Below, piece by piece: positions 1 to 60,580 of a stretch of DNA of 64,000 bases. How positions within the stretch are numbered: the first letter of the stretch is position 1; each line of letters opens with the position of its first letter. A program made the position numbers and the translations under genes. The notes under the pieces are model-generated. The model saw only the letters and a list, made by a program, of their open reading frames with translations, had not been told where the DNA came from and searched no databases. The DNA is from an uncultured bacterium (lineage in GTDB: Bacteria > Pseudomonadota > Alphaproteobacteria > UBA8366 > JADFVY01), in contig CBFDDT010000002.1 in NCBI GenBank assembly GCA_965603635.1, positions 6,154-70,153 on the forward strand, read 5' to 3'.

Positions 1-1464
1 GACTGGAACCTGATCTGCATGCTGTGCACGGAACTGCCGGATATGGAAAAGGGCACGGCGGTGCCGGAGAAGACAGCCGATGGCAAGGACGGCATCGCGC
101 TGACCTATACGATCCGGCCCGACGCCATATGGGGCGATGGCGTGCCGGTGACCACCAAGGACGTGCTTTTCACCTGGGAGGTCGGGCGGCATCCGAAGAC
201 CGGCGTGGCCAGTTCGGAACTGTACGAACGCATCACCTCGATCAACGCCAGGGACGACAAGACCTTCACCATGCATGTCAACAAGCGTACCTGCGATTAC
301 CAGGGCATCAACGATTTCGAGGTTCTGCCGGCCCATATCGAGTCGCCGAATTTCGCCGACCCGGCGGAATACAAGAACCGCAGCGCCTACGAAACCGACA
401 CGACAAACCCGGGCCTGTGGTTCGGCCCCTACCGGGTGACTGAGGTTTCGTCGGGTTCGCATATCGTGCTGGAGCCTAACCCGACCTGGTGGGGCGCAAA
501 ACCGCATTTCAAGCGCATCGTCGTCAAGGCGGTGGAGAATACAGCCGCGCTGACCGCCAACCTGCTGTCGGGCGACGTGGACATGATCGCCGGCGAGCTT
601 GGCCTGACGCTCGATCAGGCTCTGGCCTTCGAGAAACGCCATGGGGACAAGTTCGAAATGCTCTACAAGTCGGGGCTGATCTACGAGCATATCGACCTGA
701 ACCTGGACAATCCGATGCTGGCCGACCGGCGGGTGCGCCGCGCCCTGGTCCACGCCATCGACCGCGACGCCATCAGCCAGCAACTGTTCGACGGCAAGCA
801 GCCGCCGGCCCATGGCCAGACCAACCCGCTGGACCGGGTATATTTCGACGGCATCCCGAGATATGCATTTGACCCGAAACAGGCCGCTACCCTGCTGGAC
901 GAGGCCGGCTGGAAAGCAGGCGAGGGCGGCATTCGCCAGAACGACAAGGGCGAGCCGCTGCGAATGGAAATCATGACGACGGCCGGCAACAAGACGCGCG
1001 AACTGGTGCAACAGGTCTTGCAGAGCCAGTGGCGGCAGGTCGGCGTTGATGTTCGCATCCGCAACGAACCGCCGCGTGTTTTCTTCGGTGAGACCGTGAG
1101 CAAGCGCAAGTTCACCGCCATGGCCATGTTCGCCTGGATTTCCTCGCCCGAGAATATCCCGCGCTCGACCCTGCATTCCGACGAAATTCCGACCGAGAAA
1201 AACGGCTGGGGTGGCCAGAATAATACGGGCTTTCGCAGTGCCGAAATGGACAAGGTGATCGACGATATGGAAGTGATCTGCGAGCCGAAAGCGAACCAGG
1301 CCCTGTGGAACCAAATGCAGACGCTCTATGCCGAGGAACTGCCGGCCCTCCCTCTCTATTTCCGCGCCAATGCCTTCATTCTGCCGAAATGGCTGAAGGG
1401 GGTGACGCCCACGGGACATCAATATCCGACGAGCCTGTGGGTCGAGAACTGGACGGCGGAATAG
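1..1464 (+). CDS. ABC transporter substrate-binding protein, family 5 (peptide/nickel/opine type); 5' end cut by the window edge
   Basis: Frame 1 is open from base 1 and the listed ORF is 19..1464. The sequence is typical of SBP_bac_5 proteins (GIALTYTIRPDAIWGDGVPVTTKDVLFTWE, VLEPNPTWWG). It is followed 21 nt later by two cognate permeases. Confidence 0.85.
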   Translation, partial: DWNLICMLCTELPDMEKGTAVPEKTADGKDGIALTYTIRPDAIWGDGVPVTTKDVLFTWEVGRHPKTGVASSELYERITSINARDDKTFTMHVNKRTCDYQGINDFEVLPAHIESPNFADPAEYKNRSAYETDTTNPGLWFGPYRVTEVSSGSHIVLEPNPTWWGAKPHFKRIVVKAVENTAALTANLLSGDVDMIAGELGLTLDQALAFEKRHGDKFEMLYKSGLIYEHIDLNLDNPMLADRRVRRALVHAIDRDAISQQLFDGKQPPAHGQTNPLDRVYFDGIPRYAFDPKQAATLLDEAGWKAGEGGIRQNDKGEPLRMEIMTTAGNKTRELVQQVLQSQWRQVGVDVRIRNEPPRVFFGETVSKRKFTAMAMFAWISSPENIPRSTLHSDEIPTEKNGWGGQNNTGFRSAEMDKVIDDMEVICEPKANQALWNQMQTLYAEELPALPLYFRANAFILPKWLKGVTPTGHQYPTSLWVENWTAE

Positions 1465-1485
1465 GCGGCGCGGCCGGGACCCGCC

Positions 1486-2457
1486 ATGCTGCGCTTTGCC
1501 GTAATCCGGGTTACCGAGAGCCTGATCGTCCTGCTGCTGGTTTCCTTTGCGGTCTATGGGCTGATTGGGCTGATGCCGGGCGATCCGATTGACATCATGG
1601 TGCAGTCCGACCCGGACCTGACCCCGGCCGACGCCGCGCGGCTGAAGGCGCTATACGGGTTGGACCGCCCGATTATCGAGCGTTACGGCAACTGGCTTTC
1701 CGCCGCGATGCAGGGCGATTTCGGGAATTCGCGGGTCACCATGCGCCCCGTTATGGAAATGCTGTGGCCACGGCTCGGCAACAGCTTGTTGCTGCTGGGG
1801 ATAAGCACCCTGCTTGCGCTGGCCATCGCCATCCCGATCGGTATTTACGCGGCGGCGCGGCCTTATTCGCTGTCGGACTATCTCGTCAATCTGAGCTGTT
1901 TCGCGGGAATTTCGGTGCCGCCCTTCTGGCTGGCCCTGCTGATGATGATCCTGTTTTCAGTAACGCTGGGCTGGCTGCCGGCGGGTGGCATGGGGCCGGT
2001 CGGCGACGATTCATGGGCAGCCCGCCTGCCCTATCTCGTGCTTCCCGTGATGACGTTGACCATCGTCAGCGTCGGCGGCTTTACGCGCTTCATGCGGGCC
2101 AGCATGCTGCAGACCCTGCGCCAGGATTTCATTCGTACCGCGCGCGCCAAGGGCCTGGGCGAGACGCGGATAGTCTGGGGGCACGCCCTGCAAAGCGCGA
2201 TCATGCCGCTGGTCACGGTGCTGGGGCTTAGTTTCGGGGCGGTATTCTCGGGCGCGCTGATTACCGAGATCATGTTCGCCTGGGCCGGCATCGGCCGCAT
2301 GATCTACGATTCAATTCTGGCCAGCGACTATAACCTGGCGCTGGTCGGCCTGCTGTTCGCCACCGCCATGACGCTGGTGGGCAATCTGCTGGCCGATATC
2401 GCCTATGTCTGGCTGGACCCGCGGGTGAGTTTCCAACGTCTGGAGGCGGGCCGATGA
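1486..2457 (+). CDS. ABC transporter permease (DppB/OppB type)
   Basis: 323 aa polytopic protein with an N-terminal FAVYGLIGLMPGDP block and the EAA-type loop (FIRTARAKGLGETRIVWGHALQSA) typical of BPD_transp_1 peptide permeases. Confidence 0.9.
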   Translation: MLRFAVIRVTESLIVLLLVSFAVYGLIGLMPGDPIDIMVQSDPDLTPADAARLKALYGLDRPIIERYGNWLSAAMQGDFGNSRVTMRPVMEMLWPRLGNSLLLLGISTLLALAIAIPIGIYAAARPYSLSDYLVNLSCFAGISVPPFWLALLMMILFSVTLGWLPAGGMGPVGDDSWAARLPYLVLPVMTLTIVSVGGFTRFMRASMLQTLRQDFIRTARAKGLGETRIVWGHALQSAIMPLVTVLGLSFGAVFSGALITEIMFAWAGIGRMIYDSILASDYNLALVGLLFATAMTLVGNLLADIAYVWLDPRVSFQRLEAGR

Positions 2458-3383
2458 GCAGCGTCGCCGACACCGCGCCAAGCGGCGCCCCGCGCGGGAT
2501 TGTCGCCCGCATGGCGCGGCGGTTCATGCAGCATCGCCTGGCCCTGGCGAGTCTTATACTGCTGGTTCTTCTCGGGCTATTGGCCATCGCCGCGCCGCTG
2601 GTGGAATACGCGCTGGGTGTGGACGCCAACATGGCAAACCTGTTCGGACGCTTCGCCCCGCCGTCTTTCGAACACCCACTGGGAACGGACGAGCTGGGGC
2701 GCGACCTCTTGGTGCGGCTGCTGTACGGCGGGCGGGTTTCGCTAGCGGTGGGGCTGTCGGCGGCGGTATTCGCGGCGGTGATCGGCACCAGCCTGGGACT
2801 GCTGGCCGGTTATTTCGGCGGCCGATTTGACGCCTTCGTTATGCGCTTCACCGACGGGGTGATCGCCCTGCCGCTGCTGCCGCTGTTGATCGTGCTGGCC
2901 GCCGTCGATTTGGAGAAGGTGGGTGTGCCGGCGGAACTGGCGCAGTCCGAGGATATCAGCCTCTACCGCATCATCGTCATCGTCGCCCTGTTTGGCTGGA
3001 CCACGGTGGCCCGGCTGGTGCGGGCCGAGGCCCTGCGCATCCGCTCGCGCGAATTCGTCACCGCCGCGCGGGCCATGGGCGCCGGGCACGGGCGCATAAT
3101 GATCGCCCATATCCTGCCCAACGCAGTCTCGCCGATCATCGTCGCCACAACGATGTCAGTTGGCGGCCTCATCCTGTTTGAATCGATTCTCAGCTTCCTG
3201 GGCCTCGGCATCCAGCCGCCGGTGGCGAGCTGGGGCAACATGCTGACCAACGCGCAGGAGCTGATCTGGAACACACCGATGCTGGCGGTATGGCCGGGAC
3301 TGGCAATCTTCGTCACCGTCATCGCCTTCAACTTCCTCGGCGACGGATTGCAAGATGCGCTGGACCCGAGGGCGGTGGAGTGA
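2454..3383 (+). CDS. ABC transporter permease (DppC/OppC type)
   Basis: 309 aa. Overlaps the previous gene by 4 nt. Contains PLGTDELGRDLLVRLLYGGRVSL and the EAA loop FVTAARAMGAGHGRIMIAHILPNA. Confidence 0.9.
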   Translation: MSSVADTAPSGAPRGIVARMARRFMQHRLALASLILLVLLGLLAIAAPLVEYALGVDANMANLFGRFAPPSFEHPLGTDELGRDLLVRLLYGGRVSLAVGLSAAVFAAVIGTSLGLLAGYFGGRFDAFVMRFTDGVIALPLLPLLIVLAAVDLEKVGVPAELAQSEDISLYRIIVIVALFGWTTVARLVRAEALRIRSREFVTAARAMGAGHGRIMIAHILPNAVSPIIVATTMSVGGLILFESILSFLGLGIQPPVASWGNMLTNAQELIWNTPMLAVWPGLAIFVTVIAFNFLGDGLQDALDPRAVE

Positions 3384-3466
3384 GGGCCGGGGCCATTTCG
3401 CATCCCTGAACCGATCCTGTCGACCAAGGCTCGCCGTTGTCAATACGTCACCCCGGCCCTACACTG

Positions 3467-4270
3467 ATGCGGAACACACGCGCGATGACCATGACATATC
3501 CGGACCGAAATGACCTCCTCTGGGTGCTGGCGCTGGCGCCGCCACTGGCCGTGCGGCTGTATGGCGACGGCATGGAAGCGGCGGTGCAGCGGTTGCTGCT
3601 TCTCGCGCTCGCGCTTGGCATTACCCATGCCTGGGCTGCCCTGTTCGCCCGCCGGATGGGGCGCCCGCGGGGCCCCGGTCTGCCCGCCTTTGCCATGACA
3701 TTCGTTTTGATGCTGCCCGGGCCGGTTGCTTGGGGTGGCGCCGTTCTCGCGCTCAGCTTCGGCGCCGTCTTCGGGCGCGAGATATTCGGCGGCCGGGCGA
3801 TCCTGCCGCCAGCGCTGGTCGGCCTGGCATTCGCCATTTTCTCGTTCCCCGAGGGCGGTTTCGAGGCGCGAGGCGTCCTTGTGCTATCGCCCGATCCCTT
3901 GTTCGCAATGTCCTGCTTGCCCGGGGCGGCGTTGTTGATGTTGAGAAGCGCGCTCGCCTGGCAGGTCACCGCGGGCGCGGTGGTCGGCGCGACGGCGGCG
4001 GGATTCTTTATGGGCGATCCCGCATGGTGGGAGCATTTGGGCCTCGGCGCCTTCGCTGCCGGCGTTCTTTTCCTGGCCGCCGCGCCCGACGGCGCCGTCA
4101 CGGGAAAGGGCGCGCGATGGCTGCATGGCCTGCTGGTGGGGGCGCTGATTATCGTGATCCGCCTCGCCAACCCCGACCAGCCCGACGGGATCGTGTTCGC
4201 GGCGCTGCTGGGCGGGCTGTTCGCGCCGCTGTTGGACCGGGCGCTGAGCTGGAGGCCCCGACATGGCTAA
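3467..4270 (+). CDS. Short NqrB/RnfD-family membrane subunit (about 268 aa; lacks the N-terminal region and the flavinylation motif)
   Basis: The ORF is 3437..4270, opening with TTG at 3437. The first ATG is 3467; 3485 and 3491 are alternatives. The C-terminal block LFLAAAPDGAVTGKGARWLHGLLVGALIIVIRLANPDQPDGIVFAALLGGLFAPLLD and the central block FGAVFGREIFGGRAILPPALVGLAFAIFSFP match conserved NqrB/RnfD regions. It overlaps nqrC by 8 nt. Confidence 0.7.
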   Translation: MRNTRAMTMTYPDRNDLLWVLALAPPLAVRLYGDGMEAAVQRLLLLALALGITHAWAALFARRMGRPRGPGLPAFAMTFVLMLPGPVAWGGAVLALSFGAVFGREIFGGRAILPPALVGLAFAIFSFPEGGFEARGVLVLSPDPLFAMSCLPGAALLMLRSALAWQVTAGAVVGATAAGFFMGDPAWWEHLGLGAFAAGVLFLAAAPDGAVTGKGARWLHGLLVGALIIVIRLANPDQPDGIVFAALLGGLFAPLLDRALSWRPRHG

Positions 4271-5003
4271 CCTCAACCCGCTCGCCTGGTGGCGGGGTTT
4301 TCTGCGCCTGCCCAACGACAGCCCGGTAAAGACCGTCGGCGTGGCCCTGCTGGTGGCCCTGGCCTGTTCTCTTGTGGTCTCGGTCACGGCGGTGACGCTG
4401 CGGCCGCTGCAGGACGCCAACCGCTTGCGGGAAAGCGCGGCGAGCATGATGGACATGCTGGAGGGTCTCGGCGCCGGCGCGCCCGAGGCGCGGCTGGTGG
4501 CACTCTCCACCGGGGCCTATGTCTATCGCGACCCGGGCACGAAAACCGAACTGCCGGCCGAGCGTGACGGCGCGGGGTTGGGTGGCCGGGAGGACGTCGC
4601 CACCGTCTTCGAATTGCGCGAGGGTGGCGCCTTGCGGCTGGTGATCCTGCCGGTGCGCGGCGTTGGATATCAGTCAACGCTCAAGGGGTATCTCGCCCTG
4701 AAGGCGGACCTGAACAGCGTCGCCGCGCTGACCTTCCACGAACAGGAAGAGACCCCGGGGATGGGCGCGCGCATCGAGGAAGATGCGTGGCAGGCCCTGT
4801 GGCCAGGCAAGCAGGTGGCCGACGCCGAGGGCGTCATCCGCATCGAGGTGGTCAAGGGCGCGGGCGCGGGCGTGCACGAGGTCGACGGCATCTCGGGCGC
4901 AACGCGTACCGGCAACGGCGTCTCCAACCTGCTGCGCTTCTGGCTCGGCCCCGACGGCTACGGGCCGTATCTCGACCGGCTGAGGACGGAGACCGGACAA
5001 TGA
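4263..5003 (+). CDS. nqrC: Na+-NQR subunit C-like FMN-binding protein
   Basis: 246 aa with a single N-terminal TM helix ([20 protein letters not shown]). Carries an FMN_bind domain with the ApbE flavinylation motif [14 protein letters not shown]. Sits between the nqrB-like gene and nqrD. Confidence 0.8.
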
Positions 5004-5650
5004 GCGACCGCAGCCGGACCCTGATTGACCCGATTCTTGTATCCAATCCGGTGACGCTCCAAGTGTTGGGGATCTGCTCGGCACTGGCGGTGACGACATC
5101 GCTGTCCACCGCCCTGGTGATGAGTGCCGCGCTGACCGTCGTGCTCACTCTCTCCAGCGGTATCATCAGCCTGATCCGCAACCATATCCCCCGGTCGATC
5201 CGGCTGATCGTGCAGATCACGATTATCGCCTCGCTGGTCATCGTCGTGGACCAGCTGTTGCAGGCCTATATGTTCGCGATGAGCAAGCGCCTCAGCGTGT
5301 TCGTCGGCCTCATCGTTACCAACTGCATCGTGCTCGGCCGCGCGGAGGGTTTCGCCATGAAGAACCCGCCGGGGGCGAGCCTGCTGGACGGTTTCGGCAA
5401 TGGCATCGGTTACACCCTGATTCTGGTCGCAATGGGCATCGTGCGCGAGCTGCTGGGCGCGGGGACGCTGATGGGCGTCACCATCCTGCCGGCCGTCGCG
5501 GACGGCGGCTGGTTCACGCCGCTCGGGCTGATGGCCCTGCCACCGAGCGCGTTCTTCCTGCTTGGCCTGCTGGTGTGGGCGATCCGCGCGATCCGCCCGG
5601 AACAGGCCGAGGCGGCGCCGGACGGGAAGAGCGGGGAGGCGGGCGAATGA
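5000..5650 (+). CDS. nqrD: Na+-NQR subunit D (Rnf-Nqr family)
   Basis: The true start ATG at 5000 forms an ATGA overlap with the nqrC stop; the track ORF 4787..5650 carries an Arg-rich false extension. Contains [22 protein letters not shown] and [14 protein letters not shown] with the conserved Cys residues. Confidence 0.85.
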
Positions 5651-6249
5651 CAGAATTGCTGCTCCGCGCCATCTTCACCGACAATCTGGCGCTGGCCTAC
5701 TTCCTTGGCATGTGCACGTTCCTCGCGGTATCCCGGCGCCTCGAGACCGCGTTCGGGCTTGGCCTCGCCATGATCGTGGTCGAGACCGTCACCGTACCGG
5801 TTAACAATCTTCTGTTCACATGGTTGCTCGGGCCCGGGGCGCTGGCGTGGCTGGGGCAGGGCGACGTGGATCTGAGCTTCCTCGTGCTGATCGCATCAAT
5901 CGGCGTTATCGCGGCGACGGTGCAGATTCTCGAGATGGTACTGGATCGCCATTTCCCCCGGCTTTACCGTTCGCTGGGAATCTACCTGCCGCTGATCACC
6001 GTCAACTGCGCCATCCTCGGCGCCGGCCTGTTCATGGTCGAACGGCGCTACGATTTTTCCGAAAGCGTGGTCTACGGCTTCGGTTCGGGCCTGGGGTGGG
6101 CGCTGGCCATCTGGGCGCTGGCCGCCCTGCGCGAACGGGTCGACGAGAGCCGGGTGCCGCAGGGGCTGCGCGGCCTCGGGCTCGCCTTTATCCTGACCGG
6201 TTTCATGTCGATGGGGTTCGCCGTCTTCGGCGGGCTGGCGTTCGGGTGA
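5647..6249 (+). CDS. nqrE: Na+-NQR subunit E (Rnf-Nqr family)
   Basis: The start ATG at 5647 forms an ATGA overlap with the nqrD stop. Contains [21 protein letters not shown] and [15 protein letters not shown] with the conserved Cys residues. Confidence 0.85.
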
Positions 6250-6256
6250 GTCGGCG

Positions 6257-7474
6257 ATGATGGAGATAATTCTCGGCATCTCGGCGTTCACGGGGTTGAT
6301 CATGGCGCTGGTGTTCATCGTGCTGGGCGCCCGGGCCCTGCTGATGCCCCGGGGCCTCGCGTGCGTTACCGTGAACGGCGAACGGGTCCTGGACGCCAGC
6401 CTTGGGGAAAAACTCCTGCATGCGCTGGAACATGGCGGCGTGCGTCTGCCGACAAGCTGTGGCGGAGCCGGCACCTGCGGGCTGTGCCGGGTGACGGTGA
6501 TCGGCGCGGGCGATGTTTTGCCGATCGAGCGCGCTACCCTGGGCGAAACCGACATCGCGAACGGCGTTCGCCTTGCTTGCCAGATGGTGGTGCGCGGCGA
6601 CCTCGCGGTCACGGTCGCCCCGGAGCTGCTGGCCGCGGCAAGCTGGTTGTGCACTGTCCGGCGGACCCGCACCGTCGCGCCGCTGATCAAGGAAATCCTG
6701 CTCGCCCTGCCGGAGGGGCAGGCAAGGAGTTTCCCGGCCGGATCCTACGTGCAGGTCACTGCGCCGGCCTTTACCCTGCCGTTTTCCGAGATCGCCGTGG
6801 ACCCTGCGCATGAAGGCGCGTGGACGCATCTGGGCCTCAGGAGGCTCACCGCCCGCGGCAACGCCCCCGTGGCCCGCGCCTATTCCCTTGCCAACCACCC
6901 CGGGGAAACCGACGCGTTGCTTCTCAATATCCGCCTTGCGCTGCCGCCCGGCGGCAAGCCGGACGCCCCGCCGGGGGTGGTGTCGTCCTGGCTGTTCGGT
7001 CTCAGGGCCGGGGATACAGTTTCGGCATCGGGGCCCTTCGGCAATTTCTTCGTCATGGAGACGGACCGGGAAATGGTCCTGATTGGTGGCGGCGTCGGCA
7101 TGGCACCGCTGCGGTCCCACCTGTTCGACCAGTTGGAATACCGCAAGACCACCCGCGCCATCAGTTTCTGGTATGGCGCGCGCGGGCTTATAGATCTGTA
7201 TTACGCCGACGACATGGAGCGGCTTGCGCGCGAGCATGACAACTTTTCATGGCATGTCGCCCTGTCCGACCCCGATCCCGGCGATGCCTGGGACGGGGAA
7301 ACGGGGTTCATCCACGATGTCGTGTACCGCAATCACCTGCAGGCGCACCCCGATCCGGCGGCGTGCGAGTATTATCTTTGCGGCCCGCCCTTGATGATCG
7401 AGGCCGTGCAGGCCATGCTCGACAGGCTGGGCGTGCCGCGCGAAAACATCCTGTACGACGATTTCGGAGGCTGA
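6257..7474 (+). CDS. nqrF: Na+-NQR subunit F (2Fe-2S ferredoxin plus FAD/NADH-binding reductase)
   Basis: 405 aa. It has an N-terminal TM helix, the 2Fe-2S motif SCGGAGTCGLCRV...RLACQ, the FAD motif RAYSLANHP and the NAD motif LIGGGVGMAPLRS. Confidence 0.9.
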   Translation: MMEIILGISAFTGLIMALVFIVLGARALLMPRGLACVTVNGERVLDASLGEKLLHALEHGGVRLPTSCGGAGTCGLCRVTVIGAGDVLPIERATLGETDIANGVRLACQMVVRGDLAVTVAPELLAAASWLCTVRRTRTVAPLIKEILLALPEGQARSFPAGSYVQVTAPAFTLPFSEIAVDPAHEGAWTHLGLRRLTARGNAPVARAYSLANHPGETDALLLNIRLALPPGGKPDAPPGVVSSWLFGLRAGDTVSASGPFGNFFVMETDREMVLIGGGVGMAPLRSHLFDQLEYRKTTRAISFWYGARGLIDLYYADDMERLAREHDNFSWHVALSDPDPGDAWDGETGFIHDVVYRNHLQAHPDPAACEYYLCGPPLMIEAVQAMLDRLGVPRENILYDDFGG

Positions 7475-7477
7475 CCG

Positions 7478-8437
7478 ATGCTTACGCGAAGAAAGCTCCT
7501 GCGGCTGGCCGGTGGTACGGCGATGCTGAGCGTCTTGCCCGCGGTTGCGCGCGCGGCCGGGGTACGAGTCTACACTGGCCCCGCCTTCGGTTCGGCCTGG
7601 CGGCTCGTGCTGCCCGACACGGGCGAGGCGGCCCTGGCGCGGGCGCGGCTTGCGGCGGTCGTGGCGCGTATCGACGCCCTGATGTCGCCCTTCAGGCCGG
7701 ACTCAGAACTGGTCCGCTTCAATGTCGCGGGGGCCGCCATTGTGTCGCGCGAGACCAGCCATGTCGCGCGGGCGGCGCTGGCGCTGGCCCGGGACAGCGA
7801 CGGCGCCTTCGACCCCACCATGGCGCCGCTGGACCGGCTATATGGCTTCGGACCGCCCGCCATATCGCCCGCCCGCCCGGCGGGCCGCTATCGCGATGTA
7901 AGCATCGCCGGCAATTCGCTGGTATCCGCTCGTCCGGGATTGAGCCTCGACCTCTGTGGCATCGCTAAAGGGCATGCGCTGGACGAAATCCTGCGGGCGC
8001 TGGAAGGCCTCGATTTCCTGGTCGAATTGGGCGGCGAAGTCGCGGCCCGGGGCCGCCATCCGTCGGGACGGCCCTGGCGGGCAGGGATCGAACGGCCGGG
8101 GACGGCGGTGCTTCAACGCATCGTCGAACCCCATGCGCACGCGCTGGCCACGTCGGGTGACGCGGCGCAGGGCTATATTGTCGGTGGGCGGCGCTACGCC
8201 CATGTTCTGGACCCGCGTAGCCGGACACCGGTAGATAATGGGGTCGCCTCGGTGAGCGTACTGGCCGCGACGGGGTTGATGGCGGACGGTCTGGCAACGG
8301 CCGCGTTGGTGTTGGGCCCGCAAGACGCGCGCCCGTTGCTTAAGGCTCACGACGCCAGCGCGCTGTTCCTGATGCGCCGGTCCGGAGGGCTGGCGGAAGT
8401 GGAGTTGGGCGGGTTCATTGCAGGAGGCGCTTCATGA
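7478..8437 (+). CDS. apbE: FAD:protein FMN transferase (ApbE family), exported
   Basis: 319 aa with a twin-arginine-like signal (MLTRRKLLRLAGGTAMLSVLPAVARA). Contains ApbE blocks (AFDPTMAPL, GIAKGHALD, ALATSGD, HVLDPR). Starts 3 nt after nqrF. Confidence 0.85.
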   Translation: MLTRRKLLRLAGGTAMLSVLPAVARAAGVRVYTGPAFGSAWRLVLPDTGEAALARARLAAVVARIDALMSPFRPDSELVRFNVAGAAIVSRETSHVARAALALARDSDGAFDPTMAPLDRLYGFGPPAISPARPAGRYRDVSIAGNSLVSARPGLSLDLCGIAKGHALDEILRALEGLDFLVELGGEVAARGRHPSGRPWRAGIERPGTAVLQRIVEPHAHALATSGDAAQGYIVGGRRYAHVLDPRSRTPVDNGVASVSVLAATGLMADGLATAALVLGPQDARPLLKAHDASALFLMRRSGGLAEVELGGFIAGGAS

Positions 8438-8589
8438 CGCTGTTTTTGCTCAGTTTCGTGGTGATCGGACTGGCGATCCTCGGGCTCGGCGCGGGGGTTC
8501 TGCTCGGCCGTGCTCCGCTCAGGGGGTCGTGCGGCGGCAATGCCGTCCTCAAGTCCTGCCCCCTTTGCCGGCCCGGAGACGAGCGATGA
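8434..8589 (+). CDS. nqrM: (Na+)-NQR maturation protein NqrM (DUF539), 51 aa; not in the supplied ORF track
   Basis: My own translation is MTLFLLSFVVIGLAILGLGAGVLLGRAPLRGSCGGNAVLKSCPLCRPGDER*. It has one TM helix followed by the Cys-rich GSCGG...C..C tail typical of NqrM. It forms ATGA overlaps with the apbE stop (8434-8437) and the next gene's start (8586-8589). Confidence 0.7.
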   Translation: MTLFLLSFVVIGLAILGLGAGVLLGRAPLRGSCGGNAVLKSCPLCRPGDER

Positions 8590-8975
8590 CCCGAACCGTC
8601 GCCGACATCATGGCCACCCGGCTGGTCACCTTCACGCCCGACATGAACATTCACGAGGCCATTCGCATCCTGCTCGACAGACGGTTTTCCGGCGCGCCGG
8701 TGGTGAACGCGGACGGCGCCCTGGTCGGCGTGCTGTCCAAGAAGGACTGCCTGAAGATCGTGTTTTCATCGCAATATCATGACGACTGGGGCGGACCCGT
8801 GCGCGATTTCATGACTGCGCCCGTGGAAACCCTGGACGCGGGCATGGACCTGGTGAGCGCGGCCCAGCTCTTTCTCGGCAGCCATTTCCGCCGCTTTCCC
8901 GTGCTCCGCGACGGCAAGCTCGTTGGGCAGGTCAGCCGTTACGACATCCTCAAGGTTCTGACCGGGAAGCCCTGA
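8586..8975 (+). CDS. CBS-domain pair protein
   Basis: The true start ATG at 8586 forms an ATGA overlap with the nqrM stop. The 129-aa product has two CBS motifs (IMATRLVTFTPDMNIHEAIRILLDRRFSGAPVV; FMTAPVETLDAGMDLVSAAQLFLGSHFRRFPVL). Confidence 0.8.
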   Translation: MTRTVADIMATRLVTFTPDMNIHEAIRILLDRRFSGAPVVNADGALVGVLSKKDCLKIVFSSQYHDDWGGPVRDFMTAPVETLDAGMDLVSAAQLFLGSHFRRFPVLRDGKLVGQVSRYDILKVLTGKP

Positions 8976-9006
8976 ACCGCGGAGATTCCGATCGGATAGG
9001 TCTTTA

Positions 9007-9900
9007 TCAGCGAGCCTTGGTATGACTGCTTCCAGCCGCCTGCTGCTTCAGCCATTTCACAAAGGTCCTGACCGATCCCCTCAACGCCCCGGGGGGCGTC
9101 TGGATGTAGTATATTCCGAAAGCCTCGTCGGGAAATAATTCGATGAGCTGCCCGGACTGGATCTCCTTCTCGACCCAGGGGCGGGCGGTGTAGGTAATCC
9201 CGTCGCCCCGCCTCACCGCTTCCATGATCAGGTTCCCCGGCATATGGGAAATCATCGATGGCCGGTCGTGCGCAACACCGTGCCTGGCCAGCCAGTCCGC
9301 GACCTCACTGGTGCCCAGCTCCTGCAGCCATGGCAGCTCCACGAGCATCGCCGGTTCAGTTATCTTGCGCGTGCCGATCAGCGCAGGCGTTCCGACTATC
9401 ACCATATCGGCAACCAGGACCGCGTCTACCTCGGTCTTGGGCCCGCGGCTGTCGCGATAGCGGATTGCCAGGTCCACGCCACCGGGTTTCAGTTCGATGA
9501 TCTGCGAGGTGGGATTGAGCATCAGCGTGATATCCGGGTGCCGGGTCTGGAAATCCACCATCCTGGGCATCAGCCACATTACGGCGAAGGCCGGCGACAT
9601 CGTGACCTGCACCGGTCGCACCGCGTCCAGCCCCGTCAGGGCCTCGACACCCCGACGAATGGCGGTGAAGCCGGCCTGCAGGTCGCGCGCCAGCGCCTCG
9701 CCCTCTTCGGTCAGCGCGACACCGCGCCCGTTTCGGGCAACCAGAGCTACGCCGAGCCGGGCTTCCAACGCCTTGACCTGCTGGCTCACCGCCGCATGGC
9801 TAACGTTCAGGACTGAGCCGGCCCTGGAATAGCTCTCCGTTTCCGCGAGGGCGGCGAATGCCTTCAGGCTGTTGAGCGGGGGCAGGCTGGTCCAGTCCAT
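9007..9900 (-). CDS. LysR-family transcriptional regulator (GcvA-like)
   Basis: 297 aa with an N-terminal HTH (LNSLKAFAALAETESYSRAGSVLNVSHAAVSQQVKALE) and a LysR substrate-binding domain. Confidence 0.9.
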   Translation of the reverse strand: MDWTSLPPLNSLKAFAALAETESYSRAGSVLNVSHAAVSQQVKALEARLGVALVARNGRGVALTEEGEALARDLQAGFTAIRRGVEALTGLDAVRPVQVTMSPAFAVMWLMPRMVDFQTRHPDITLMLNPTSQIIELKPGGVDLAIRYRDSRGPKTEVDAVLVADMVIVGTPALIGTRKITEPAMLVELPWLQELGTSEVADWLARHGVAHDRPSMISHMPGNLIMEAVRRGDGITYTARPWVEKEIQSGQLIELFPDEAFGIYYIQTPPGALRGSVRTFVKWLKQQAAGSSHTKAR

Positions 9901-10087
9901 ACGTTAGAATTTCTTACAACAAGGAATTTTATTTGAGTCGCGCGAAAACAGAATATTCTTCAATATGCGGCAAATACAAGACAAAAAGCCGATCGCCACG
10001 ATGTTCGACGACTGTAACTTTTTCCTTGAATAGTCCCGCACAGAGGCAGCGGCGGCCGGTCAGGCATGGTTTCCGGAGGCAAAAGAG

Positions 10088-10495
10088 ATGGCGGATACGG
10101 GCGAAACACATGAAGGTGGCTGCTTCTGCGGGGCGGTACGCTATTTGCTGCGCGGCGCGCCGACCTACTCGGCGCATTGTCATTGCCGGTCCTGCCAGCG
10201 CGCCGTTGGCGCCGGCTTCGCGACCTGGAGCGGGGCCGAACCGCAGAATTTTGAGGTGACGAAGGGGGAACTGGCGATCTACGTATCCTCGCCCGGCGTG
10301 CGGCGCGGTTTCTGCCGGACCTGCGGCACCTCCCTCACCTATGAAGGCGACGACTGGACCGATATCGCGGTCTTGTCGGCGACGCTGGACGACCCCGCCG
10401 TCGCGAAACCGGCCACCAACGTCTATCTTGAACACAAGCAGCCCTGGGTTGTTCTGGACGAGAAACTGAGGAAGTACGACCGCTTCCCTGACTGA
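10088..10495 (+). CDS. GFA-family (glutathione-dependent formaldehyde-activating/CENP-V-like) zinc protein
   Basis: 135 aa with the Cys pattern GGCFCGAVRY...HCHCRSCQRA...FCRTCGTSL typical of the GFA fold. Confidence 0.8.
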   Translation: MADTGETHEGGCFCGAVRYLLRGAPTYSAHCHCRSCQRAVGAGFATWSGAEPQNFEVTKGELAIYVSSPGVRRGFCRTCGTSLTYEGDDWTDIAVLSATLDDPAVAKPATNVYLEHKQPWVVLDEKLRKYDRFPD

Positions 10496-10512
10496 ACCGG
10501 CCCGAAGCGCCA

Positions 10513-10719
10513 ATGGAGGAAGACATGGCCAACGCATATTCATACGCCTGCAAGGACTATCCCGGCATGGAGGCCTGCCCCGGCCGCGTCGTCGCGGAAA
10601 CGGAAGACGAGGTTCTGAAATTGGTCGAACTCCACGCCTCGGTCGCCCATGGCGAGGACCCCGCCGCCTGGAGCGACGATGACAGGATCTATCTCAAGTC
10701 ACTCATCAAACCGGAATAA
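10513..10719 (+). CDS. DUF1059-family small protein
   Basis: YSYACKDYPGMEACPGRVVAETEDEVLKLVELHASVAHGED fits the DUF1059 pattern. The start may instead be the ATG at 10525. Confidence 0.6.
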   Translation: MEEDMANAYSYACKDYPGMEACPGRVVAETEDEVLKLVELHASVAHGEDPAAWSDDDRIYLKSLIKPE

Positions 10720-10760
10720 TCTGGAATGTAGCGGTGTGCGGATGGATGAGGTCGCGCGCT

Positions 10761-12326
10761 CTATTTGCTGACGATCCTGAACACGCCCTTTTCCTGGTCG
10801 TCCATCTGGGCGGTGAGGCCGGTTTCCCAGGCGAGATACTGGCGGCAGGCTTCCAGATTGCCGGCGTGGCGGTCGTGGACGAAGAACAGGTAGTCGATGC
10901 AGTCTTCGTCTGGCGGATCGGCGGGCGTGGTGGTCAGGCGCAAGCCGGCGGCGCGCCAGTCGGCCTCGTTCCCGGCCAGGAAAGAAACATCGCGATGGCC
11001 GGCCGTGGCGAGGTCGGTGGCGGCGAGGTCGGCGACGAGGCGGTCGGCGGCCGTCAGGACGATGGGTTTGCCCACCGGCAGGTCAATGCGGTCGAGGCGT
11101 GGTCGGGTCGCCCAGCGCGCGCCCGCGACATGGCCGGCGCGATAGGCCATGGTGGGGTTCAGGTCCAGCAGGATCGTGGAACCATCCTCCAGCCCGGCGG
11201 ACAGGGATTCCGGGGAGATGCCGGGCAAGGATGAAGATAGATCGCCTTCCCCGCCCCCCGCCATGCCGGATGCATCCTCGTCCAGCACCACCGCATCGTG
11301 CCCCATCTGGCGCAGCCAGTGGGCGCAGATCGCGGCGCGGAGGTTGGTGTCGTCCATCAGCACCAGGCGCGCATTGCGCACCGCAACCCATTGGTCGGTC
11401 GCCTGCACAAGCTGGCCGCCGGGCGCATGAACCGCCCGCGGGTAATGGCCGCGCTCGAACTCCTCGGCCGTACGTACGTCCAGCAGGTACAGGCTGCGAT
11501 CCGCGTCGCCGCGCCATTGCCGCAGGGTGGCGTCGTCGATCACCGGGATGCCATGTCTGGCGATGAATTCGGTGGCACGTTCACGCGAGGCGGCCAGCTC
11601 GGCCACCCCGAAGTTTTCCGGGTAAAGCCGCGCCGCGCCGCGTTCCAGCTCGTAGCCCGCCAACTGCCAGCCCTGGGTGCCGTTCTCCAGCGCAAGGACG
11701 GGATTGCGGAACCCCAGATCGATCAGCGACTGCGCCCCCATGATGCTGCGCGTACGGCCGGCGCAATTGATAACGATAGGTGTCGTCTCGTTCGGAACCA
11801 GCATCGGCAGTCGGTGGCCCAGTTCGGCGTTGGGGCAGGCGATGCCGCCGGGAATGTTCATCTTGCGGTATTCGGCGACCGTGCGCCCATCCAGCAGCAC
11901 GAATTCCTCGCCGCGGTCCCGCATCGCCTGAAGCTGATCCGCCGTGATGCTCGGTGTATGGCGAGCATGTTCGACCATCTCGCCGAAGGCCTTGCTGGGC
12001 ACGTTCACGCCCTTGAACAGGGTGTGGCTGGCCGCCACCCAGCCCAGCGTGCCGCCCTCGACCGCCGCTATATCCGTATAACCAAGCGCCGCCAGCCGCG
12101 CGGCCGCCTTGTCCGCCACCCCGTCGCCGTCGTCCAGCAGGATAATCGGGACCGCCTTGCAGGGCAGCAGACGCGCCGCCTCGATCTCCAGCCGGCTGTA
12201 GGGCAACGGCACGGTGAAGAAGGGATGTCCCTCGCCATACTGGCCATGCTCGCGCACATCCAGGAATGCGATCTCGCCGCCAGCGGTCAGGCGCGCTTTG
12301 ACCTTTTCAGCCTTCAACCAGCGCAT
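10761..12326 (-). CDS. Multi-domain rhodanese sulfurtransferase (four rhodanese-like modules plus a C-terminal domain)
   Basis: Start ATG at 12326 (MRWLKAEKV), preceded by a GGAGAA Shine-Dalgarno sequence. Repeated LDVR/LLDGR/LLDVR/LLDLN module starts. One catalytic loop, NCAGRTRS (CxxxxR[ST]). Confidence 0.8.
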   Translation of the reverse strand: MRWLKAEKVKARLTAGGEIAFLDVREHGQYGEGHPFFTVPLPYSRLEIEAARLLPCKAVPIILLDDGDGVADKAAARLAALGYTDIAAVEGGTLGWVAASHTLFKGVNVPSKAFGEMVEHARHTPSITADQLQAMRDRGEEFVLLDGRTVAEYRKMNIPGGIACPNAELGHRLPMLVPNETTPIVINCAGRTRSIMGAQSLIDLGFRNPVLALENGTQGWQLAGYELERGAARLYPENFGVAELAASRERATEFIARHGIPVIDDATLRQWRGDADRSLYLLDVRTAEEFERGHYPRAVHAPGGQLVQATDQWVAVRNARLVLMDDTNLRAAICAHWLRQMGHDAVVLDEDASGMAGGGEGDLSSSLPGISPESLSAGLEDGSTILLDLNPTMAYRAGHVAGARWATRPRLDRIDLPVGKPIVLTAADRLVADLAATDLATAGHRDVSFLAGNEADWRAAGLRLTTTPADPPDEDCIDYLFFVHDRHAGNLEACRQYLAWETGLTAQMDDQEKGVFRIVSK

Positions 12327-12360
12327 AATTCTCCAAACTCGCCAAATAGTTTCCAGAACT

Positions 12361-13074
12361 TCACGGCGGGCCGCCAAACCGACCCAGCAACGGTGTCTCG
12401 CCCTGACGCGCCATCAGGATTTCGCCCCCCATCATCCGATAATGGCGGAGAATGTTTTGCAGGGGCTCCTCGTAGACCTGCGACCGGTAACTGTAGATCA
12501 GCCGCTCTTTTTCCGCCGGTTCCGCGCCGCGAAGCAACCTGAACTCGCATACTTCGCCCGCCAACGGCCCCTTGAGTTCGCCGGGCCGAAACACATCGGC
12601 CCCATAGGGCTGATCAAGATAAAACAGCACGGGAATGCCGCTGTCGGCAAGATTCAGACCGATCCCGGCCAGAAGAATATGATCGGGATGCTGTCCCGCC
12701 CCGGCCGGAAACAGTGCGACATCATACGGGTGCGCGGCGATACGGCGTCGGACGATTTCCAGGACGGTTTCGGCGAACGGATCCCGGAACATCCGCCGCA
12801 GCCGCGCCAGCAAGCCTTTATGCCTCAATATGACGTCCGGCAAATCTTCCCAGTCCAGCTTGTCCACAAGCTGGCCCAGCGCCTTCTTTTCCTCGGATTT
12901 TCGATGCGCCGTCACCTCTTCGACGCTGCCGGCGTCCCATATCCAGAAGTTCGTCCGGGTGAACATATTGACGATATGGACCGGCCCGAGACTTCCCCGC
13001 AACAGGCTGCCGCCCAGTGAATAGCCCGCATCGTCGCAGTGCGGCGAAAACAGAATACGGCGCGCTTCGGTCAT
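12361..13074 (-). CDS. PIG-L/LmbE-family N-acetylglucosaminyl deacetylase-like protein
   Basis: ILFSPHCDDAGYSLGG resembles the (A/P)H(P/A)DD metal motif, and a downstream HPDH motif (GAGQHPDHILL) is present. Overlaps the GT2 gene by 4 nt. Confidence 0.7.
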   Translation of the reverse strand: MTEARRILFSPHCDDAGYSLGGSLLRGSLGPVHIVNMFTRTNFWIWDAGSVEEVTAHRKSEEKKALGQLVDKLDWEDLPDVILRHKGLLARLRRMFRDPFAETVLEIVRRRIAAHPYDVALFPAGAGQHPDHILLAGIGLNLADSGIPVLFYLDQPYGADVFRPGELKGPLAGEVCEFRLLRGAEPAEKERLIYSYRSQVYEEPLQNILRHYRMMGGEILMARQGETPLLGRFGGPP

Positions 13075-13970
13075 GGCCCGCGCGGGGGCTCGCCGCCCCC
13101 CCAGGGGGCCTGTTCGGCAACCTTGGTCAGCCAGAATCGCTCAAGAATTCGAGCTATTCTTCGGCTTGTTCTGAGATACCCGTGGCGGGGCGCATAATGT
13201 TCGGCGAAGCAGACAAAAGCGTCCCGGTCGAACCTGTCCATGGCGAAGGGAAGCGCTTCAATCTTTTGCCGCGCCAGGACAGCGCTGTTCCCATACTCCC
13301 GCGACCTTGCCCGGCGGGCGGTTCGATCACTTTGTGTCCTGACCAGGGACGTCACTTTCGGCACGAACAGAAAGTTGCCACGCGTCGAATAGCGGCACCA
13401 TAACTCCCAATCCTCGAAAGCGTTCAGGTCCGGGTCGAAACCGCCCAACTGCTCGTAGCAGGACCGGTGAAACATTGCCGACTGGATAGTGATGAAATTC
13501 GAAACCCAAAGGGAAAACTTGTCAAAGGGCGGCAGGAAACGCATACGCTTGGCGGTCTCCCGGTATTTGAGCGGCTCAAGCGAAACCCAATCCGTGCGGA
13601 CGGTTTCCCAACCGGCATACGCCACCGCCTCGCGCCCCTCCAGCGCCTGCACCATGGTTTCCACATGGCATGGATACAACAGGTCATCATCGTCGAGGAA
13701 ATTGATATAATCGCCGCGCGCTCGCGCAAGCCCTTCATTGCCGGCCAAGGCCCGCCCGCGCTTGCGCCCCAGCGGCACATAGGTCAAACGCCCATCATCC
13801 ACCAATTGATCGAGATATGGCGCGCATTCCGCGGGCCCGTCTTCGACCAGAACAACCTCGATATTTCCGTAACTCTGGGCAAGAACCGACTTCACCGCCT
13901 CCAGCGCGAGCGCCGGCCGGTTACAAGTTCTGACCACCACCGAAACAAGGGGGGTGCTGATATTTCCCAT
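13071..13970 (-). CDS. Family 2 glycosyltransferase
   Basis: VSVVVRTCNRPALALEAVKSVLAQSYGNIEVVLVEDG and the DxD-like FLDDDD are a typical GT-A N-terminal half. Confidence 0.85.
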   Translation of the reverse strand: MGNISTPLVSVVVRTCNRPALALEAVKSVLAQSYGNIEVVLVEDGPAECAPYLDQLVDDGRLTYVPLGRKRGRALAGNEGLARARGDYINFLDDDDLLYPCHVETMVQALEGREAVAYAGWETVRTDWVSLEPLKYRETAKRMRFLPPFDKFSLWVSNFITIQSAMFHRSCYEQLGGFDPDLNAFEDWELWCRYSTRGNFLFVPKVTSLVRTQSDRTARRARSREYGNSAVLARQKIEALPFAMDRFDRDAFVCFAEHYAPRHGYLRTSRRIARILERFWLTKVAEQAPWGGGEPPRGP

Positions 13971-14068
13971 CGAATAAACAATTCAAAACCTACAGTACGG
14001 CTACCATTTAGCACGGTATTAACTGGTTATTCAATCACAGGGATGCGGCAAGTTGTTCACCCCGCAAT

Positions 14069-16787: not shown

Positions 16788-17507
16788 ATGCCCTTGGACG
16801 ACCAGAAACCGTTTCACGCCAGCAATGTCCAGACACTGACCGTGCTGGTGCAGCGCGAGATCGAGCGCCGCATACTGACCGGCGAACTGCCGGCGGGCGA
16901 ACGCCTGTCGGAAAGCGCGCTGGCCGTGAACATGGGGGTCAGTCGCGGCCCGGTGCGCGAGGCAATGCGCGGCCTGCAGCAGGCGGGCTTGGTCGATATC
17001 GTCGCCAACAAGGGCGTTGTGGTACGCAAGATCGGTTATGACGAGGCGGTGGATCTGTACGATCTGCGTGGCTCGCTATTCGGCTTCATATGCGAAACCA
17101 TGGCACGGCGCCGGACCGACGAGCAGTGCGCGATATTGAAGGACAAGCTGGACAGCATGGCGGCGGCAATCCAGGCCGACGACAAGGAGACCTATTTCCG
17201 CGTCAACCTTGAATTCCATGCCGCGATTGTCGAATTCTGCGGCAACATCAGGGCCCGCGCGGTTTACGAGGGCATCGCCAAGGAGATGCACCTGTTCCGC
17301 CGCCGCGGCCTGTCGCTGATCGAGAATATGGAAGCCTCGATGCATGAGCATGAGGCGATCGCCGCGGCGATTATCGCCGGACGCGCGGAAACCGCGCGCA
17401 AGGCGGGCGTCAGGCATCTGCTCAACGGGCGGGACCGGTTTCTGGCCACGCTCGACCCGGACTCTTTCGCGAGCGGGTCCGAAAGGCGGCCGGCCGCCGC
17501 GGAATAA
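16788..17507 (+). CDS. GntR-family (FadR/FCD subfamily) transcriptional regulator
   Basis: 239 aa with a winged HTH (LPAGERLSESALAVNMGVSRGPVREAMRGLQQAGLV) and an FCD ligand domain. Confidence 0.9.
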   Translation: MPLDDQKPFHASNVQTLTVLVQREIERRILTGELPAGERLSESALAVNMGVSRGPVREAMRGLQQAGLVDIVANKGVVVRKIGYDEAVDLYDLRGSLFGFICETMARRRTDEQCAILKDKLDSMAAAIQADDKETYFRVNLEFHAAIVEFCGNIRARAVYEGIAKEMHLFRRRGLSLIENMEASMHEHEAIAAAIIAGRAETARKAGVRHLLNGRDRFLATLDPDSFASGSERRPAAAE

Positions 17508-21116: not shown

Positions 21117-21124
21117 GCGCGACC

Positions 21125-22237: not shown

Positions 22238-22264
22238 ACGAAGCAGAATGAGGTAACGAAATCC

Positions 22265-38640: not shown

Positions 38641-38652
38641 CGAACCCTGATA

Positions 38653-46624: not shown

Positions 46625-46632
46625 CGCCCGCC

Positions 46633-46790
46633 CTAGTGGTGTGAATGAGACATATGGTACCCATGGGACGGCCTTGCGCGCCCACCGGCGGCGTTGCGCG
46701 CGGCTGGCTAAGCGCCAGCATCGGGGCGCACCACGCGCTTGTTCGTATTACCGCGAACGGCCGAACAATTTTACTCATTCACACCACTAG
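46633..46790 (-). promoter_or_regulatory. Highly structured leader upstream of cbpA, closed by a perfect 17-bp inverted repeat
   Basis: CTAGTGGTGTGAATGAG at 46633-46649 is the exact reverse complement of 46774-46790. The 124-nt interior has nested hairpins (TTGTTCG/CGAACAA, CCG-TTCG-CGG, GCTGGC/GCCAGC, GCGCGC/GCGCGC). The proximal arm ends 8 nt before the cbpA ATG. Confidence 0.4.
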
Positions 46791-60566: not shown

Positions 60567-60580
60567 GGCATTTTAGAAGA

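Follow-up and report, generated by a model that had tools for sequence, protein, structure and literature searches.

An NQR-type operon without NqrA and with a reduced NqrB in uncultured Alphaproteobacteria

Na+-NQR, the NADH:quinone oxidoreductase that pumps sodium, ranks as a major enzyme of respiration and has been put forward as an antibiotic target, and two basic questions are asked of it: what purpose NqrA serves, and by which route Na+ crosses the membrane, either through NqrB, gated by its flavin mononucleotide (FMN), or through NqrD/E around their [2Fe-2S] cluster. NqrA carries no cofactor and has no assigned function, ApbE flavinylates NqrC, NqrM is required for the NqrD/E cluster, and the V. 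cholerae nqr operon as described contains no gene for a CBS-domain protein (PMC12174285). Here we report on an eight-gene operon in a 64-kb stretch of DNA from an uncultured bacterium assigned to the Alphaproteobacteria (contig CBFDDT010000002.1; the whole stretch is referred to as the window), which, judged by its sequence, encodes a conserved, intact and apparently undescribed variant of this enzyme, with no NqrA and with a shortened NqrB that we call NqrB'. The initial annotation of this DNA knew of no described NqrA-less, short-NqrB variant, and our full-text literature search, with subscription-only papers outside it, likewise turned up no account of a naturally NqrA-less NQR or of CBS genes in an nqr operon.

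In canonical NqrB the side chains of T162, N200, N203 and D346 hydrogen-bond riboflavin (PMC10643135, PMC9293633), mutation of the glycine pair G140/G141 abolishes quinone binding (PMC4014512), two N-terminal amphipathic helices form the quinone pocket (PMC12174285), and F159/F160 are counted among the quinone-site residues (PMC12174285, PMC4014512, PMC10643135). The model for V. cholerae makes NqrB the path of Na+, with the NqrB FMN as its gate (PMC10643135); the model for the A. woodii RNF complex has Na+ moving by an alternating-access switch of the D/E-type pair at the membrane [2Fe-2S] (reviewed in PMC12174285). Related two-subunit NQR/RNF-like systems, found mainly in Actinobacteria and the candidate phyla radiation, combine an unflavinylated NqrB/RnfD-like subunit with an ApbE-flavinylated NqrC/RnfG-like subunit, and are proposed to support a one-way electron flow that starts at NAD(P)H and ends at an acceptor outside the cytosol (Meheust et al., 2021, PMC8238504; Huang et al., 2024, PMC10979944).

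The operon and its reduced NqrB

Eight intact open reading frames (ORFs) on the plus strand, spanning 3485-8975, make up the operon. They are listed here with profile scores from Pfam and NCBIfam, each followed by the curated cut-off.

nqrB', 3485..4270, plus strand: 261-aa membrane protein of predicted NqrB/RnfD fold; PF03116, 100.7 bits (cut-off 27.7)
nqrC, 4263..5003, plus strand: membrane-anchored periplasmic FMN-binding subunit; PF04205; TIGR01938, 143.2 bits (cut-off 144)
nqrD, 5000..5650, plus strand: one half of the intramembrane [2Fe-2S] carrier; TIGR01939, 288.7 bits (cut-off 244.85)
nqrE, 5647..6249, plus strand: second half of the [2Fe-2S] carrier; TIGR01940, 284 bits (cut-off 247.55)
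nqrF, 6257..7474, plus strand: NADH-oxidising subunit; TIGR01941, 454.2 bits (cut-off 295), residues 4-405 of 405
apbE, 7478..8437, plus strand: exported flavin adenine dinucleotide (FAD):protein FMN transferase with a twin-arginine-type (Tat-type) signal; PF02424, 211 bits (cut-off 25.6)
nqrM, 8434..8589, plus strand: 51-aa maturation factor with a single transmembrane (TM) helix; GSCGG...CPLC; PF04400 sub-threshold, 16.4 bits (cut-off 22)
CBS-pair gene, 8586..8975, plus strand: stand-alone 129-aa protein, translationally coupled to nqrM; PF00571, two domains, 103 bits (cut-off 24)

NqrB' reaches only 93-98 bits against the nqrB equivalog models, whose cut-offs are 350-414, and its alignment with V. 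cholerae NqrB is confined to residues 136-218 and 278-400 (the solved V. cholerae NQR, 7xk3 chains, served as the reference enzyme for residue mapping). When its AlphaFold2 (AF2) model, which is of moderate confidence (pLDDT 72.8), was compared by Foldseek, the best match was 7xk3_B with a TM-score of 0.81, NqrB chains reaching up to 0.82 on the query and RnfD coming next; on this model the 10-helix NqrB fold is predicted to be retained.

Within that fold, the sites that serve the output end of the canonical enzyme have gone. The NqrB loop 219-277, which bears FMN-Thr236, is replaced by about 19 residues without the S/T-G-A-S/T motif, both in the window protein and across its family. The riboflavin ligands are changed (T162F, N200A, N203P and D346A), and the motifs around the former riboflavin site, GGRAILPPA and LAAAPE/D, are conserved across the NqrB' family. 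At the quinone site we find G140T, G141H, F159L and F160P; the N-terminal ~50 amino acids that hold the two amphipathic quinone-site helices are missing, the TM1-2 loop is deleted too, and the C-terminal tail is shortened. The counterparts of D397 and P376 are kept. Because NqrB' has neither the FMN loop nor the riboflavin ligands nor the quinone-site elements, the canonical route from FMN(NqrB) through riboflavin to ubiquinone cannot operate. The initial annotation had proposed a trimmed module whose electrons go to an acceptor other than the usual NqrB end. This is partly supported: at the sequence level that end is lost, and to a greater extent than could be seen then.

The electron-input half of the complex (NqrF, NqrD/E and NqrC, with ApbE and NqrM) is, by the alignments, intact and strongly conserved, and flavinylation is predicted. 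NqrF matches its V. cholerae counterpart at 425 bits over residues 2-405, with the Cys motif, RAYS and GGGxGMAP all aligned, and comprises a 2Fe-2S ferredoxin domain and an FAD/NADH domain in addition to a TM helix at the N-terminus. NqrD (271 bits against 7xk3_D) and NqrE (243 bits against 7xk3_E) align end to end and keep the counterparts of Cys29, Cys112 and Asp133 and of Cys26, Cys120 and Glu95, respectively. NqrC scores 140 bits against V. cholerae NqrC, with DGISGAT aligned on the T225 motif, and falls marginally under the TIGR01938 cut-off. The ApbE N-terminus carries the twin-arginine-type signal (MLTRRKLLRLAGG...AVARAAG), and the NqrM TM helix and its GSCGG and CPxC motifs are common to all relatives despite the sub-threshold Pfam score. 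The motifs that had been named at the outset (the paired Cys contexts of NqrD and NqrE, DGISGAT, Cx5Cx2C...C, RAYS and GGGVGMAP) are thus all present, the export signal claimed for ApbE is seen to be of the Tat type, and the accessory set of a sodium-pumping NQR is there, NqrC-F being assigned by profile, ApbE by its 211 bits and NqrM by position and motifs. That ApbE and NqrM are present implies that an electron path is being selected which extends at least as far as the NqrC FMN on the periplasmic side.

The reported lack of nqrA extends beyond the operon. An NQRA Pfam domain was found in none of the 38 larger window ORFs scanned, operon included; tblastn of the whole window with the closest NqrA available, which belongs to a related operon, yielded no hit below E=6; and no nqrA lies upstream of nqrB' in any of the 18 related loci whose upstream sequence runs to 1.3 kb or more. 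The CBS protein was considered as a substitute for NqrA and rejected, because a CBS gene co-occurs with NqrA in L044, L046 and L050 (such numbers designate records in our set of related loci).

The genes are packed as tightly as the initial annotation had described, and every ORF and junction was found on the plus strand: nqrB' and nqrC overlap by 8 nt (4263-4270), nqrC/nqrD and nqrD/nqrE by 4 nt each, gaps of 7 nt and 3 nt separate nqrE from nqrF and nqrF from apbE, and the apbE/nqrM and nqrM/CBS junctions are both ATGA overlaps. One start codon has to be moved. The NqrB-like gene had been started at TTG 3437; it most likely begins at ATG 3485, which is used by public gene calls on the 72,893-bp source contig and gives a protein of family-typical length (261 aa). 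An ABC permease does lie immediately upstream, ending at 3383, and with nqrB' starting at ATG 3485 the gap is 101 nt rather than 54-83 nt. The TTG formerly taken as the start codon is overlapped by the following site.

Promoter-like site TTGTCA-17 nt-TACACT, 3437..3465, plus strand: 20 nt 5' of ATG 3485; weak evidence

This match is unique within 3200-9200, yet shuffled sequences average 0.9 matches, which puts it at chance level.

Conservation and stepwise reduction of the cassette

Relatives were viewed ±10 kb around each cassette in a set of 50 locus records, several of which are duplicates of one contig. The database search for the same eight-gene arrangement that had been proposed for this DNA was productive, with the cassette recurring in more than 20 independent metagenomic loci. 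From a large protein collection we obtained 183 NqrB' homologues, the best 120 of which share 53-97% identity and are nearly all 259-264 amino acids long. Their named sources are all metagenome-assembled genomes (MAGs), labelled Alphaproteobacteria, Rhodospirillales, Rhodospirillaceae and, for one bin, Gemmatimonadota; a genome scan adds cassette-bearing MAGs labelled Kiloniellales, Lysobacterales and Acidobacteria. A family alignment of 23 NqrB' members has 44 invariant columns and distinctive motifs.

The gene order B'-C-D-E-F-(apbE)-nqrM-CBS is constant across loci, and as the flanking genes vary from locus to locus the cassette is self-contained. In all 16 distinct loci that reach far enough, nqrM and the CBS gene lie 3' of nqrF, as they do in the NqrA-bearing relatives L046 and L050 (18 in total). 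Membership of the CBS protein in the cassette is obligatory, a point that the initial annotation had overlooked, and its CBS pair keeps both G-h-h-S/T-x-x-D motifs, which we take to be the ligand motif. The gene for ApbE is more variable: it is present at its cassette position in 11 loci, absent from six (L006, L023, L031, L034, L045 and L046) and reduced to a remnant in one, L018, where the last ~39 codons persist between nqrF and nqrM (4397-4513). Flavinylation in the six loci without apbE must use an ApbE encoded elsewhere.

Ratios of nonsynonymous to synonymous substitution rates (dN/dS) were calculated pairwise between the window cassette and four relatives, with the caveat that dS may be underestimated in these GC-rich genes. 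They are 0.24-0.45 for nqrB', 0.10-0.29 for nqrC, 0.04-0.14 for nqrD/E, 0.16-0.22 for nqrF, 0.09-0.27 for apbE, nqrM and CBS together, and 0.13-0.20 for CBS alone. Purifying selection acts on all eight genes and is weakest on nqrB'. The intact ORFs, the conserved order and dN/dS below 0.5 for all eight genes agree with the original view that the operon is functional rather than decayed.

More distant short-NqrB genes have nqrA directly upstream (in L011, L042, L043/L044, L046, L047 and L050), and in these NqrA-bearing relatives nqrM and CBS are present as well whenever the contig is long enough to show them. The forms of NqrB fall into the following tiers.

Canonical tier: Halomonas NqrB, 408 aa; DGFTGAT, GGTGKNFLNPA and MATDPVS, long N-terminus; NqrA present
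Tier 1 (L050, L046): NqrB of 382 and 377 aa; loop kept with a degenerate motif, N200 and D346 kept; NqrA present
Intermediate tier (L047): NqrB of 310 aa; loops partly deleted; NqrA present
Tier 2 (L011): NqrB of 280 aa; loop gone, D346 kept; NqrA present
Tier 3 (the window clade): NqrB' of 259-263 aa; riboflavin motif with a further 2-aa deletion, D346 lost, tail 6 aa shorter; NqrA absent

The tier-1 loop motifs are AGYRGSA, in which Thr has become Ala, and AGYAGST. The canonical Halomonas operon (L049, nqrA-B-C-D-E-F-nqrM) has no CBS gene. A phylogeny, which had also been suggested for this cluster, was run on NqrD+NqrE by neighbour joining, a distance method (399 columns, 100 bootstraps, V. 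cholerae as single outgroup and root). The NqrA-less loci are monophyletic, 20 of 20 forming one clade in 100/100 bootstraps, and their sister group consists of CBS-linked loci with NqrA and a shortened or unflavinylated NqrB. Since a short or unflavinylated NqrB coexists with NqrA in these sister lineages, the two losses appear to be separable steps of one reductive series; the sequences indicate that NqrA was lost once, as the last step of a series begun by the loss of NqrB flavinylation. Tier-1 NqrB is 45-47% identical to Halomonadaceae NqrB, which suggests that the whole CBS-linked clade arose within proteobacterial NQR.

Two oddities were seen in the tier-1 loci. The CBS gene of L050 (12715-13110) is split by an in-frame stop (…MTAEV*TIDAD…) and called as two fragments, which could reflect a sequencing error, a pseudogene or recoding; in L046 a 71-aa NqrM-like ORF (9807-10022) with another Cys pattern (…PLCSGC…ACGGC…) lies between nqrF and the CBS gene.

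Traces of rearrangement surround the cassette in other loci. A Kiloniellales MAG (L005/L008) carries a partial, frameshifted duplicate of the 5' part of nqrB' (L005:7145-7616, equal to L008:7355-7826 on the same contig), which comprises amino acids 1-160, is 77-81% identical to the window protein and lies some 2.5 kb upstream of the complete operon, with an octaheme cytochrome gene between the copies; it looks like a rearrangement scar. A called gene for a 341-aa protein there (L008, 7389-8414, minus strand) was rejected as a partner protein, being an antisense shadow of the partial duplicate. In L009, a close relative, remnants of the permC C-terminus flank the cassette (9730-9816 and 17065-17160; 93% and 69% identical to the last ~30 aa of window permC), and about 4 kb of unrelated genes lie between the complete permC and nqrB', which points to insertions or duplications near the L009 cassette.

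As to the flanks, clusters of flank genes were used only if confirmed by tblastn or Pfam; greedy longest ORFs gave antisense shadow ORFs in GC-rich loci. Window positions 1-3383 encode an ABC importer, namely two permeases and a family-5 solute-binding protein whose gene is truncated at the left edge, and ATPase genes do not follow the permeases, either in the window or in L009. The transporter was rejected as part of the cassette, as it adjoins it only in relatives with at least 80% identity. Convergent with the operon and 3' of the CBS gene lies a LysR-family regulator (9007-9900, minus strand), an 82%-identical copy of which stands divergently upstream of nqrB' in L001 (124-990, minus strand) and is a candidate operon regulator in close relatives only. 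Further on, a 538-aa protein with four rhodanese domains is encoded at 10761-12377 (minus strand). Its gene is near the cassette in the window, L009, L013 and L014, standing directly after the CBS gene on the opposite strand in the last two, which may reflect only the shared ancestry of close relatives. Six window segments of 0.8-1.5 kb each have no long ORF with coding-like third-position GC (13075-14068, 21117-22264, 37205-38652, 41935-42957, 46625-47395 and 60383-61819), and window GC is ~0.65, falling to 0.56-0.60 near the right end (56-64 kb). An Rfam scan of 1-12000 (E up to 0.1) found no RNA element, no tRNA genes are present in the window, and a terminator scan gave five terminator-like sites, which is chance level.

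The proposed electron acceptor and rival explanations

Our main explanation, which we hold to be about an even bet, is that the cassette encodes a functional, NQR-derived complex of five subunits (NqrB'CDEF), served by ApbE, NqrM and the CBS protein, in which NqrC passes its electrons to a non-canonical acceptor. NADH would be oxidised at the FAD of NqrF, and electrons would move from there to the NqrF 2Fe-2S centre and on through the membrane [2Fe-2S] of NqrD/E to the covalent FMN of periplasmic NqrC, the part of the path that can be read from conserved residues. With NqrB-binding NqrA absent and the canonical return path via NqrB FMN, riboflavin and ubiquinone closed, the exposed NqrC FMN would reduce an acceptor in the periplasm or at the membrane surface; c-type cytochromes would be the best candidate and, in several lineages, the acceptor may be an octaheme cytochrome encoded beside the operon. 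NqrB' could act as a redox-inert 10-helix scaffold and as a docking or resting site for NqrC, possibly also as a cation channel. Alternating access in NqrD/E probably still moves Na+, as proposed for A. woodii RNF, and the cytoplasmic CBS protein may sense an adenosine-containing ligand and tune activity. In its most complete form, that of a five-subunit Na+-pumping NADH dehydrogenase that bypasses the quinone pool, carries electrons from NqrC FMN to periplasmic c-type or octaheme cytochromes, has a cofactor-free NqrB and is gated by energy state through the CBS protein, the proposal is a tentative one, possible rather than probable.

The cytochromes are suggested by gene neighbourhood. In three lineages the operon has homologous genes for octaheme c-type cytochromes beside it (8 CXXCH; multihaem families in Pfam; 6i5b and MccA as distant PDB matches). 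In L033, L034, L036 and L040 they lie directly upstream on the operon's strand; L008 has its copy upstream in divergent orientation, and in tier-1 L050 the gene stands upstream of nqrA. Because multihaem cytochrome genes are rare in genomes, their adjacency in three separate lineages is unlikely to be chance. Genes for transporters of monovalent cations are also common nearby: Na+/H+ exchanger genes adjoin the operon in L031, L045 and L043/L044, and other neighbours are an SBF-family symporter (L019), a P-type cation ATPase (L032) and a member of the CitMHS/Na-sulfate symporter family (L006). These neighbours, together with the kept counterparts of NqrB-D397, NqrD-D133 and NqrE-E95, which we take to be Na+ uptake residues, fit ongoing Na+ coupling and do not prove it. 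Separately, an ORF fragment in L040, read by eye and with no profile confirmation, resembles a cation/H+ antiporter with a TrkA-N domain.

Several points weigh against this account. The acceptor is deduced from gene neighbourhood only, and a cytochrome gene is adjacent in only 6 of ~24 loci, the window not among them; the 64 kb of the window contain no real CXXCH gene for a c-type cytochrome, the single CXXCH, in a doubtful N-terminal extension of the ORF at 47396-48025, having been rejected as one. The flanks are otherwise variable, so that the transporter associations are loose and could be due to chance. If the V. cholerae Na+ model is general, the NqrA-less variant might not pump. The search for nqrA or a canonical nqr operon spans 64 kb of the genome studied here plus ±10 kb about the cassette in each relative. 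Finally, the AF2 model of NqrB' is only moderately confident, and NqrB' is still well conserved, so that it could keep an unrecognised ligand or quinone site.

The most serious rival holds that NADH:quinone oxidoreductase activity persists: the complex could do without NqrA and would reduce quinone at a new site, with the NqrC FMN swinging into the vacated NqrB' pocket, as proposed for the two-subunit NQR/RNF-like complexes, or with the site lying at the periplasmic membrane surface. We regard it as doubtful while granting it real weight. The conservation of NqrB' (44 invariant columns, dN/dS 0.24-0.45) speaks in its favour, as does the fact that no acceptor gene is universally linked to the cassette, which would suit a ubiquitous acceptor such as quinone; NqrA has no cofactor or assigned function to be missed (PMC12174285), and in the model of Huang et al. 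the FMN of an NqrC-like protein moves into an NqrB-like partner that is itself unflavinylated (PMC10979944). However, the known riboflavin-binding side chains are all swapped for residues unable to hydrogen-bond, the quinone-critical glycine pair is replaced and the N-terminal helices of the quinone pocket are deleted, and with no cofactor in NqrB' the periplasmic FMN would be too far from quinone on the cytoplasmic side. The loss of every known flavin and quinone ligand argues against this rival.

A second rival runs the complex in reverse, a Na+ gradient driving electrons from a low-potential periplasmic donor, for example the octaheme enzyme, through NqrC, NqrD/E and NqrF to NADH. The octaheme genes that adjoin the operon in three lineages are related to MccA/octaheme family enzymes, the Na+/H+ exchangers in three loci could build such a gradient, and RNF complexes are known to run backwards (PMC12174285), whereas NQR is described as forward-running with NADH as donor (PMC12174285). 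One Na+ per electron would also provide too little energy for most periplasmic donors, and most loci have neither an octaheme gene nor a Na+/H+ exchanger beside the operon. No report of in vivo NAD+ reduction by NqrF-type modules is known to us, and on the whole this direction of flow seems improbable.

It is, we think, very unlikely that NqrA, perhaps with a full-length NqrB, is supplied in trans and that the cassette merely provides alternative subunits for an ordinary NQR. The coverage of 64 kb here and ±10 kb around the relatives leaves room for such genes, but the cassette's own set of C, D, E, F, ApbE and NqrM would be redundant for mere complementation, and sister lineages encode NqrA in cis. 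Moreover, compared with the 280-aa form that stands beside nqrA, NqrB' has a shorter N-terminus and a C-terminal tail shorter by 6 aa, and the trimmed ends are presumably regions of NqrA contact. The idea of a functionless, decaying nqr remnant, for which one could cite the weaker constraint on NqrB' (the least constrained structural gene, dN/dS up to 0.45), the loss or reduction of apbE in some loci and the in-frame stop in one tier-1 CBS gene, was rejected on conservation and dN/dS and is hardly credible: more than 15 full-length relatives, some as divergent as 44-54% identity, share with the window a full set of eight intact ORFs, the translational coupling has been kept, every gene shows a dN/dS well below 1, and the clade spans several orders and hence is old.

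Significance and comparison with known systems

The variant amounts to a deletion experiment carried out by evolution. It has lost NqrA, the NqrB FMN, riboflavin and the pocket for quinone, yet selection still maintains the input half together with the maturation factors; as a natural test case it bears on what NqrA does and on where Na+ is translocated. Should the complex pump without NqrB FMN and riboflavin, ion translocation in the NQR/RNF family would depend on the NqrD/E [2Fe-2S] switch and not on the flavins of NqrB. Our proposal further points to a route by which NADH electrons could enter the periplasm without the quinone pool, and to a previously unremarked CBS-domain partner of an NQR-type complex, and the stepwise evolutionary series joins canonical NQR to the minimal form. 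There is a practical consequence as well: databases label the cassette genes as ordinary NQR/RNF subunits, so that metabolic reconstructions would wrongly infer a standard NADH:quinone Na+ pump for the affected hosts, which are mostly uncultured marine and sediment Alphaproteobacteria.

The cassette descends from Na+-NQR and would work like its first half. Compared with canonical Na+-NQR, it has clear orthologues of NqrC, D, E and F with their cofactor ligands kept, the same maturation factors, the same gene order B-C-D-E-F-apbE-nqrM and an NqrB of the same predicted fold. Of the features that mark an NQR, we found the NqrF domains, the four Cys of NqrD/E, the S-G-A-T of NqrC and linked ApbE and NqrM; four are missing, namely NqrA, the NqrB FMN, the riboflavin site and the quinone site. 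The cassette thus differs in having no NqrA, in an NqrB reduced from ~410 to 261 aa without the covalent-FMN loop, the riboflavin ligands and the quinone-site helices and glycines, and in always carrying the CBS-pair gene, which is absent from the Halomonas operon (L049) and the described V. cholerae operon (PMC12174285). With NqrA and the NqrB sites missing, the terminal acceptor is probably not reached by the canonical route.

The nearest relatives are the NqrA-bearing CBS-linked loci (L050, L046, L047, L011, L042 and L044), for which our literature search found no experimental studies. They share the gene order, including nqrM and CBS, and an NqrB that is unflavinylated or shortened (382, 377, 310 and 280 aa); they differ in keeping nqrA, D346, at least one of N200/N203, and a longer NqrB N-terminus and C-terminal tail. 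With RNF the cassette has a homologous core (RnfD with NqrB', RnfG with NqrC, RnfE with NqrD, RnfA with NqrE), and RnfD, like NqrB', is without the N-terminal quinone-site helices; NCBI labels NqrB' 'RnfABCDGE type electron transport complex subunit D'. However, it is not an RNF: the operon has no RnfB/RnfC and has NqrF at the donor position, NqrD and NqrE match the nqr equivalog models better than the rnf ones, and RnfD retains covalent FMN and riboflavin, whereas NqrB' has neither site.

The two-subunit systems, finally, resemble the cassette in pairing an unflavinylated NqrB-like with a flavinylated NqrC-like subunit. Their NqrB-like domain is fused to a PF00175 NAD-binding domain, and they have no NqrD, E, F or NqrM (PMC8238504). 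In the cassette, NqrB' stands alone and has lost the non-covalent flavin site too, PF00175 resides on a separate, full-length NqrF, and it is the NqrD/E cluster that would carry the electron across the membrane.

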